NCBI GenBank assembly: GCA_037144045.1
Contig: JBAWXN010000001.1
Span: 66,487 to 130,486 of the forward strand
From: a bacterium
GTDB lineage: Bacteria > Patescibacteriota > Minisyncoccia > Phycocordibacterales > UBA1006
Length of the DNA: 64,000 bases
Direction: 5' to 3'
A program made the translations under genes and the position numbers. The stretch's first letter is position 1, and the number at the start of each line of letters is the position of its first letter. Positions 20,886-47,830 of this stretch are shown piece by piece. Below the pieces are notes generated by a model, which saw only the letters and a program-made list of their open reading frames with translations, searched no databases and was not told the origin of the DNA.

Positions 20886-22148
20886 ATGCCAAAACCAATC
20901 AAAAAAAAGACAACTAAAAAAGTAGCTCCAAAAAAAGTTGCCAAAAAGGCTCCTGTTAAAAAAGTAGCACCTAAGAAAGTTGCTGCGAAAAAAGTTGTTA
21001 AATCAACAAAAAAAGTAGCACCTAAAAAGGTAGCCAAGAAAAAAGGTGATTCAATGCCTGCTAAAGGACTCACTAAGGAAGAGATTAATGCGCGAGTAGC
21101 AGTATTACTTGATAAAGGAAAAAAACGACGGTTTCTTACCTATGATGAAATCCTTAAAGCGTTTCCTGATATTGAAGAAGATGTATTGTTCCTTGATGAA
21201 TTGTATGGGAAATTCGGTGATGCGGGAATTGATGTTATTGAAACAGGGGGACTCCTTTCTATGGATCCCGAACCAGATCCAGAACTTTCTGGTCGTCGGT
21301 ATGATCGCGCATCATCATCAAATGATTCTGTGCAAATGTATCTCAAGGAAATTGGAAAATATCCTTTGATTCGCGCTGCAGAAGAACGAGACCTTGCACA
21401 GAAGATTCTTGCAGGTGATGACGAAGCGCGCAACCTTCTTGCCCAAGCAAACTTGCGTTTAGTGGTGTCTATTGCGAAGAAATATTCTACACGTAGTGCA
21501 GACCTCACCCTCCTTGATTTAATTCAAGAAGGAAACATTGGATTGTATAAGGCAGTTGAAAAATTTGACTGGACGAAAGGATTTAAATTTTCTACGTATG
21601 CGACTTGGTGGATTCGACAGTCGATTACTCGAGCCTTGGCTGACCAGTCTCGAACGATTCGTATTCCGGTGCATATGGTTGAAACGATTTCAAAGTACAA
21701 GCAAGTAACGCGACGCCTTGAACAAGACCTGGGACGAACACCATTACCCGAAGAAATCGCTACCGAGATGGGTATTGAGGTAGAAAAGATCTATATGATT
21801 AACAAAATTAATCAATCTACGAAATCACTCGAAGAATCTATTGGTGGATCTGATGATGATAAGTCTACTCTTTCTGAATTCGTTGCTGATGACAAAATTA
21901 TGTCGCCTGACCGCGAAGCATCAAAACGAATATTACAAGATCAGTTTAAAGACATTCTCAACGATCTGTCACCTAAAGAGCAAAAGATTATTGAAATGCG
22001 TTATGGATTGATTGATGGTATTAATCACACGTTAGAAGAAGTAGGAAAGGAATTCGGGGTAACTCGTGAACGTATCCGACAAATCGAAGCAAAAGTACAT
22101 GATAAGATCCGTGCTAACGAAAAGATCATGAAGTTGCGAGACTACTAA
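20886..22148 (+). CDS. rpoD: RNA polymerase sigma factor, primary sigma-70 type, with lysine/alanine/proline-rich N-terminal tail
   Basis: Region 1.2, 2 ([26 protein letters not shown]), 3 and 4.2 ([20 protein letters not shown]) are present. The first 56 codons encode [11 protein letters not shown] repeats. An alternative internal start is the Met at 21054. Confidence 0.88.
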
Positions 22149-46643: not shown

Positions 46644-46659
46644 GGGTCTTGACAAGAAT

Positions 46660-46688
46660 TTGACTTATTTTAACTGGTGTGATAGTGT
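46660..46688 (+). promoter_or_regulatory. sigma70-like promoter (TTGACT-17-TAGTGT)
   Basis: ttgacttattttaactggtgtgatagtgt. Confidence 0.45.
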
Positions 46689-46721: not shown

Positions 46722-47795
46722 TTGTTGAAAACAAACAAACAAAACAAACGTTCTATGGCAAAAGTAAACATTACGTTCAAACCAAAACAGACTACCAAAA
46801 AGCTCCTTAAGGGGCTTCAAGACCGTGCGTCAGAAGTGATCGTGAACCGATTTGGCTTGAATGACAGTGGTGAACAACAAACACTTGAATCAATTGGTCA
46901 AAAATATGGCATTACTCGTGAACGAGTACGTCAAATTGAAAACTTCGCTCTTAATGCAATTAAAAAATCAGACTCATTCCATGAAGCAGAAGAAATCTTT
47001 AAAGAGCTTAAAGATGTTATTCAAACTCTTGGAGGAATTGTTTCAGAAGAAGAACTCCTTCCTATGCTTTCAAAGGATCAAGTAACTCAAAATCATATTG
47101 GGTTATACCTCGCATTGGGGAACGATTTTGCTGAAGCAAAAGAAGATGCTCATTTCAAGAAGCGATGGATTGTTGATGGATACACTGCAGAACGAGTACA
47201 CAAAGCTCTCCTTGATATTCATGGAGCCCTTGCATCAGAAGACCTTATTTCAGAATCTGAAATGATCGACAAAGTGTTGTGTCATGATGGTATCTGCGAA
47301 ATCACTTCACATAAAGTGGATAATGAAATGGCTGGCCGATGGTTGAACATTTCTAAGTCACTTGCAAAGAATCCTTTGGGTGAATGGGGACGCGCAACAT
47401 CACCTAATGTGAAAACTCGAGGAATCAAGGACTATGCGTACTTGGTAATGCGACGTCACGGTTCACCTATGCACTTTCGCGAAGTTGCAGAGGCAATCGA
47501 AAAAACATTTGGTAAGAAAACTCACACCGCAACCTGTCACAATGAATTGATTAAAGATGCTCGATTCGTCCTAGTAGGACGAGGAGTATACGCACTCAAA
47601 GAATGGGGATACACTGCAGGAGTAGTTCGTGAAGTAATTGAACAGATCTTGAAAAAGGACGGTCCAATGACTAAAGACGAAATTATCGAAAAGGTACTTA
47701 AAGAACGCTACCTCAAGAAAAATACTATCTTAGTAAACTTGATGAATCCTAAGTATTTTAAAAAAGACAAAAACGGACTCTATAGTGCCGCATAA
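46722..47795 (+). CDS. DNA-binding protein: N-terminal sigma-70 region-4-like HTH fused to C-terminal HARE-HTH (RNAP delta-subunit-like) domain
   Basis: VNRFGLNDSGEQQTLESIGQKYGITRERVRQIENFALNAIKK closely parallels region 4.2 of this genome's own rpoD. The C-terminal YLVMRRHGSPMHFREVAEAIEK...RFVLVGRGVYALKEW resembles HARE-HTH. An alternative start is the Met at 46755. Confidence 0.55.
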   Translation: MLKTNKQNKRSMAKVNITFKPKQTTKKLLKGLQDRASEVIVNRFGLNDSGEQQTLESIGQKYGITRERVRQIENFALNAIKKSDSFHEAEEIFKELKDVIQTLGGIVSEEELLPMLSKDQVTQNHIGLYLALGNDFAEAKEDAHFKKRWIVDGYTAERVHKALLDIHGALASEDLISESEMIDKVLCHDGICEITSHKVDNEMAGRWLNISKSLAKNPLGEWGRATSPNVKTRGIKDYAYLVMRRHGSPMHFREVAEAIEKTFGKKTHTATCHNELIKDARFVLVGRGVYALKEWGYTAGVVREVIEQILKKDGPMTKDEIIEKVLKERYLKKNTILVNLMNPKYFKKDKNGLYSAA

Positions 47796-47799
47796 GTTT

Positions 47800-47830
47800 T
47801 TCAAAAAACCACCTCGAGTGGTTTTTTGTT
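47800..47830 (+). terminator. rho-independent terminator
   Basis: aaaaaaccacctcgagtggttttttgtttg. Confidence 0.8.

Follow-up and report, generated by a model that had tools for sequence, protein, structure and literature searches.

The ultrasmall Patescibacteria (CPR) account for much of bacterial diversity; their genomes are tiny and hold very few recognisable regulators. [quoted passage not shown] The initial annotation, made from the sequence alone, described it as a candidate transcription factor; that proposal stands, and both domain identifications on which it was built are right.

Gene boundaries, promoter and conserved neighbour

The gene and its flanking elements are as follows.

46722-47795, + strand: open reading frame from the ORF list, confirmed as real
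46755..47795, + strand: coding sequence, 346 aa plus stop; homologs begin MAK... and are 342-349 aa long
46660..46688, + strand: predicted sigma-A-type promoter; -35 TTGACT (46660-46665), 17-nt spacer, extended -10 TGaTAGTGT (46680-46688)
46649..46654, + strand: extra TTGACA hexamer, 11 nt upstream of the -35, read from the sequence
47802..47828, + strand: predicted terminator-like hairpin from a consensus scan, with an 11-bp stem and then a T-run, directly after the stop codon
47859..49349, + strand: membrane protein of 496 aa, DUF8128 (PF26449) family, with a VirB4-like/EccE-like fold and no ATPase domain

Although translation from a TTG at 46722 is formally possible and would yield 357 aa, the best start is most likely the internal ATG at 46755 (MAKV...), giving 346 aa, because all close homologs share it. 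The gene had been credited with its own promoter, and we located a predicted site in which the -35 and extended -10 elements listed above are combined. A strict promoter pattern, TTGACN-N13-16-TGNTANNN[AT], was present upstream of 60/78 orthologs and had just 42 matches elsewhere (approximately 0.9 Mb). So strong a consensus promoter is unusual and suggests that the protein may be abundant.

We confirmed that a membrane-protein gene follows, as the initial annotation had stated. This gene pair was found in 72/80 Paceibacteria loci as well as in three further loci (L161-L163) and in Candidatus Southlakia epibionticum, and homology of the DUF8128 parts was confirmed between Paceibacteria and Saccharibacteria, so that the pairing is conserved across both classes. 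The DUF8128 protein has no PDB sequence match, no PADLOC match and a weak PHROG match only, and no N-terminal cytoplasmic domain lies ahead of its membrane helices. A sigma/anti-sigma relationship between the two proteins was considered and rejected on the basis of the VirB4-like/EccE-like fold.

The N-terminal head is a housekeeping-type sigma region 4

Two features define the N-terminal part of the protein.

46782..46988, + strand: sigma region 4 (4.1 + 4.2) domain, aa 10-78
46914-46934, + strand: recognition helix, T54-R-E-R-V-R-Q60

The Pfam family Sigma70_r4 scores 52.5 bits over residues 28-82 (in 357-aa numbering), its gathering cut-off being 24.1, and the best NCBIfam matches are the C-terminal ends of RpoD and RpoS models, restricted to their last ~60 positions. 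The head shares 46% identity (22/48) with region 4 of the window's own RpoD (20886-22148), its model lies within 1.0-1.3 Å of solved sigmaA region 4, and all 60 PDB profile matches listed are region 4 of SigA, RpoD, RpoS or SigB. By sequence and structure model, then, the head is of the housekeeping (group-1) type. It had been described as nearly a copy of region 4.2; its sigma identity is upheld, but it comprises both 4.1 and 4.2 and not 4.2 alone. A generic LuxR/GerE helix-turn-helix (HTH), the alternative named at the outset for the N-terminus, shares its broad tri-helical HTH class with sigma region 4 and with the ECF-type domains (Sigma70_r4_2). We rejected it, since Sigma70_r4 is the top Pfam match, GerE is absent at E<=1 and the listed PDB profile matches are all to sigma region 4.

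The equivalents of E. coli sigma70 R554, R562, L573, T583, R584, E585, R586, R588 and Q589, which from the literature on sigma-4 and the -35 element we take to include the residues that contact the -35, are retained in 89-100% of 141 relatives that are 33-56% identical; E45 shows lower retention than the other -35-contact residues, at 74% in the same relatives. The specificity residues of the recognition helix are identical to those of the genome's own RpoD. As a purely protein-docking domain would not need these contact residues, their retention argues that the head reads DNA. The patch used for contact with activators (equivalents of K593, R596 and K597) is not retained in the 141 relatives.

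Four winged-helix-like modules follow the head

The AlphaFold model (pLDDT 87) places four winged-helix-like modules after sigma region 4, the third of which is the HARE-HTH domain.

46989..47177, + strand: winged-helix-like module 1, aa 79-141, with the AlphaFold order H-E-H-H-E-E
47178..47402, + strand: winged-helix-like module 2, aa 142-216, acidic (pI 5.4) and poorly conserved
47403..47618, + strand: HARE-HTH winged helix, aa 217-288, basic (pI 9.8)
47619..47792, + strand: C-terminal small winged-helix-like module (WH4), aa 289-346, basic (pI 9.6) and conserved (N323-T-I-L-V-N-L329)

This four-module layout is a prediction drawn from the AlphaFold model and fold matches. HARE-HTH is the firmest of the assignments: the Pfam match (PF05066) covers residues 235-295 in 357-aa numbering and reaches 50.8 bits against a gathering cut-off of 25.9, and the domain has a winged-helix fold, which establishes the bona fide C-terminal HARE-HTH domain that the initial annotation had recognised. 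Conservation within the protein also peaks in this domain (H262-N-E-L-I266, G275-R-G277, Y279). The earlier description assigned the last ~110 aa to HARE-HTH and noted the absence of sigma regions 2 and 3 between the two domains; the domain and that absence are both borne out, but a fourth small winged helix comes after HARE-HTH and the intervening stretch is predicted to consist of two winged-helix-like modules and not of a linker. Module 1 is acidic (pI 4.7) and poorly conserved (mean column identity 0.33), has no Pfam match and is winged-helix-like as judged from the structure model. The module 2 region of Saccharibacterial homologs faintly matches a Rok-type winged helix (PF23159), and the Rok DNA-binding domain is among the Foldseek matches of the model (rank 35). 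Matches of the C-terminal module to DUF3320 and RuvA_C are weak and below cut-off. Comparison with hhalign gave no significant similarity among the four modules, and we rejected the idea that they are recent tandem duplicates. Basic pI values of 9.5-9.8 are shared by sigma-4, HARE-HTH and WH4, the whole protein has a net charge of +6 (pI 8.9), and its most acidic 30-aa stretch reaches only -7, so that no polyanionic tail is present. Constraint is strongest at the sigma-4 recognition helix and at helix 3 and the wing of HARE-HTH.

The protein is neither a sigma factor nor an RNAP delta subunit

The absence of sigma regions 2 and 3, noted from the sequence, was confirmed at the level of Pfam, where Sigma70_r2, Sigma70_r3, GerE and Sigma70_r4_2 all lacked a match to the protein at E<=1. 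The protein gave no alignment to regions 2 or 3 of RpoD, and tblastn searches with RpoD region 1.2-2 and with region 3 found rpoD alone. We therefore rejected membership of the sigma-70 family of sigma factors, as region 4 is present whereas region 2 and the region 3/3.2 linker are not. Compared with the group-1/2 sigma-70 factors (SigA/RpoD/RpoS), region 4 here is N-terminal and regions 1.2, 2 and 3 are lacking; sigma factors end at region 4, whereas here winged helices follow, standing in the model where sigma region 2 would be, and the activator-contact patch is not conserved. Because regions 1.2, 2 and 3 are missing, the protein is unable to bind the beta' clamp helices or to melt the -10 element.

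The suggestion of a delta-like factor, in contrast, is not borne out. Delta is dispensable in Firmicutes, whereas the tested member of the present family is essential, as described below. The Firmicutes protein (RpoE) consists of an N-terminal HARE domain, which docks at the beta' shelf/jaw, and an acidic tail that displaces nucleic acids (PMC7749165, PMC11156646), and it works through this tail, which is polyanionic, ~80 residues long and of net charge -47 (PMC7749165). Here HARE lies in the C-terminal half, is basic and is tail-less, and the protein as a whole is basic. The NCBIfam model for RNAP delta (TIGR04567, RpoE) scores 33.7 bits, below its cut-off of 42, and identity as a delta subunit was rejected on both grounds.

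The family appears confined to Patescibacteria and has an essential member

A check of the distribution of this architecture, as had been proposed, showed it in the genomes of at least 571 species, from Paceibacteria as well as Saccharibacteria, and the family appears to be confined to Patescibacteria. Its members are ~345 aa long throughout and conserved at 49-64% identity, equal to that of MnmA in the same loci, and the same Pfam pair is found in all 240 relatives listed, bar a few truncated sequences. The window protein aligns end to end with the Saccharibacterial protein P0404 at 35% identity over 335 aa (E 3e-53). A single 659-aa 'fusion' of SecF, sigma-4 and HARE (P0145; one member, one contig) most likely represents two merged gene calls and was not used. 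Among 80 IMG/VR matches, two are full-length, one of these in a cellular context, and the remainder are ordinary phage sigma factors that match the sigma-4 part only; a rare, shortened copy lies on a phage-like contig (L082). With only 2/80 full-length matches, a phage origin or a role as 'appropriator' was set aside as unlikely.

We found nothing on this family in a literature search on sigma/HARE-HTH and CPR transcription factors, a search to which the 2012 work of Aravind and Iyer is external. That work defined HARE-HTH, and its abstract reportedly mentions bacterial proteins in which features of sigma factors and of the RNA polymerase alpha-subunit occur together; the sigma-HARE combination may thus already have been noted there. 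No alpha-CTD-like domain was detectable in the window protein with Pfam or in the AlphaFold model.

One family member has been included in a genome-wide mutant screen. SEML1_0294 of Candidatus Southlakia epibionticum ML1, a 349-aa protein annotated as 'RNA polymerase sigma factor RpoS', carries PF04545 at 27-72 and PF05066 at 225-283 and was parsed from structure as 'tri-helical, winged, winged, winged' (PMC10633639, Tables S1 and S2). It is listed as core, Patescibacteria-enriched and class-I essential by Tn-seq (PMC10633639, Tables S1 and S2), with 24 insertions in input DNA against 1, 1 and 2 recovered, and is not discussed in the text of that paper (PMC10633639). It has the same architecture and size as the window protein, to which we estimate, from the related L081 and P0404 proteins, an identity of roughly 33-35%; identical domain order, matching length and end-to-end homology (via P0404) place the two in one family. 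Its neighbours are those of Saccharibacterial loci, with topA upstream and a DUF8128/T4CP-like gene downstream. The two proteins differ in that SEML1_0294 belongs to the class Saccharimonadia and the window to Paceibacteria, conservation does not extend to the N-terminal FKPKQTTKK tail, the middle module of SEML1_0294 matches a Rok-type winged helix, and its downstream DUF8128 protein has an ATPase domain that is absent in the window. By analogy the family may be essential as a whole, essentiality having been shown for SEML1_0294 and the window organism being uncultivated.

A second TTGACA hexamer marks the promoter in some lineages

Within the window the density of TTGACA in intergenic DNA is 16 times that in coding DNA, as expected for a working -35 consensus. 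No separate -10 element at a suitable distance accompanies the extra TTGACA at 46649..46654. The 948 kb formed by the window and the loci contain 10 direct repeats of TTGAC at 11-12 nt spacing, of which 7-9 sit just upstream of orthologs of the gene. Any extra TTGACA-type site is found in 22/60 promoters of this gene versus 6/42 elsewhere (p = 0.014), the loci being phylogenetically non-independent, and offsets of -11/-12 account for 5/28 versus 3/72, with the same non-independence of loci. The second TTGACA is, however, present in only ~10% of orthologs and absent from the Saccharibacterial ones. Given this minority and the dependence among loci, we rejected it as a general operator; as a site of autoregulation it is a weak lead. 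TTGAAA at -11 in the window's 16S and 40262(-) promoters merges into A-tracts, and an A-tract UP-like element would account for it equally well. An apparent 21-nt periodicity of TTGAC (13 cases) is an artefact: it comes from the conserved sequence that encodes the C-terminus of this very gene (...YVKENTILVNL...), read in the antisense direction.

Proposed role and alternative explanations

Our preferred reading, held tentatively and with somewhat less than even confidence, is that the protein belongs to an essential, Patescibacteria-specific family of general transcription factors in which the sigma-4 head would read TTGACA-type hexamers, a mechanism to which conservation and structure models point. 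The head would bind double-stranded hexamers of this type as sigma-A region 4 binds the -35; the basic HARE-HTH and WH4 would bind adjacent DNA, raising affinity and fixing orientation, or might instead grip RNAP; and the two variable acidic winged-helix-like modules would serve as spacers. Since the head would read TTGACA-type hexamers and the C-terminal winged helices would bind next to them, the protein may act genome-wide, at or beside the -35 elements of sigma-A promoters, with no private operator. As a committed guess, it would set promoter occupancy together with the single sigma-A holoenzyme, activation and repression both being possible, and in some lineages it may feed back on its own promoter via the second TTGACA, one helical turn upstream of the -35.

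In function this would resemble CarD and RbpA of Actinobacteria, which are small, abundant, essential and clade-restricted and serve most housekeeping promoters without being specific to an operon; the resemblance would be one of function, with no kinship of sequence or fold. CarD and RbpA attach to RNAP or sigma and touch DNA without sequence specificity; the family described here, in contrast, has a sigma-4 head predicted to be sequence-specific. Several complexes of RbpA or WhiB type, which act next to sigma-A domains, are among the Foldseek matches of the model. Several points count against our preferred reading: the one bacterial HARE-HTH with a solved functional context, that of RNAP delta, docks on RNAP and not on DNA, isolated sigma-4 binds DNA weakly, and essentiality would be unexpected if the protein merely competed with sigma-A at every -35.

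A stronger version of general promoter recognition, which we consider rather doubtful, makes the protein an unrecognised basal initiation factor, an extra RNAP specificity subunit of Patescibacteria that would provide an essential second sigma-4 beside or in place of sigma-A region 4, with HARE-HTH and WH4 on upstream DNA or on RNAP. It is likewise somewhat unlikely that the protein is an accessory RNAP subunit, with sigma-4 on the beta-flap tip helix and/or HARE-HTH on the beta' shelf/jaw as in delta, acting in initiation, elongation or recycling and not binding DNA as a free factor. Such a subunit would be compatible with a DNA-reading general factor, but the active acidic tail of delta is missing, HARE is strongly basic, TIGR04567 falls short of its cut-off (33.7 versus 42), and strict conservation of DNA-contact residues would be superfluous for pure protein docking; moreover, RNAP carries its flap tip and its shelf/jaw at opposite ends, a distance that two compact winged helices would be unlikely to bridge. 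A complete region 4 with nothing else sigma-like also recalls two-subunit sigma factors such as SigO-RsoA of B. subtilis, and region 4 could conceivably be supplied in trans to a separate region-2 protein. We find this barely credible, as a search of the window and of ±6 kb around 80 orthologs gave no region-2 paralog, PF04542 (sigma region 2) in the complete S. epibionticum annotation is confined to RpoD, and nothing in sigma factors corresponds to the four winged helices. S. epibionticum thus appears to possess a single sigma factor.

The specificity residues shared with RpoD, together with the lack of sigma-2, hence the inability to support initiation itself, would suit an antagonist or global repressor, the anti-sigma or appropriator role raised in the initial annotation. 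Such a sigma-4 decoy would rival sigma-A region 4 at -35 hexamers or at the beta-flap tip and thereby damp transcription globally or in particular states, and the shortened copy on the L082 contig would fit a use in host takeover. We regard this as distinctly unlikely: a pure antagonist would not usually be class-I essential or have constitutive strong promoters, the IMG/VR matches include just two full-length proteins in 80, one of them in a cellular context, and no anti-sigma or AsiA/MotA-type partner was seen, the conserved neighbour having a VirB4-like fold. That neighbour suggests a further explanation, in which the protein is a partner or regulator of the DUF8128/VirD4-like membrane protein, either as the DNA-binding adaptor of a membrane DNA machine or as a local regulator. 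The frequent pairing in Paceibacteria (72/80 loci), the fusion of the Saccharibacterial DUF8128 domain to a TrwB/VirD4-type ATPase, and the thousands of orphan coupling-protein homologs located away from virB4 in CPR genomes (bioRxiv 10.1101/2025.01.22.634366) are in its favour, but we judge it quite improbable. SEML1_0293, the DUF8128-ATPase, is non-essential whereas SEML1_0294 is essential (PMC10633639), which implies that the essential role is independent of the DUF8128 protein. In addition, a terminator-like hairpin and variable gaps of 32-700 nt separate the two genes, L161-L163 carry another gene in between, the block also holds unrelated housekeeping genes (mltG, mnmA), as is typical of frozen gene order, and a recognition helix identical to that of sigma-A argues against a private operator.

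Implications for transcription in Patescibacteria

In this family the promoter-reading head of a sigma factor has been reused in a different scaffold, and recognising this corrects a recurrent mis-annotation, as proteins called 'RpoS' or 'sigma factor' lack region 2. The family is conserved in at least two classes, and one member was as indispensable as RpoD in the sole genetic screen, which together make it a strong candidate for a lineage-specific part of the basic transcription machinery. Its role can be tested now, because Saccharibacteria are genetically tractable. If the stronger version, that of an extra RNAP specificity subunit, is true, the protein would give bacteria with one sigma factor and almost no classical regulators a distinct means of controlling promoter strength, for example at rRNA promoters and at its own promoter, and would be the counterpart for the CPR radiation of CarD and RbpA in Actinobacteria, with a sequence-reading head of its own. 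Should the family indeed belong to the basic transcription machinery, it would represent a new organisation of bacterial promoter recognition, in which a -35 reader is supplied in trans.

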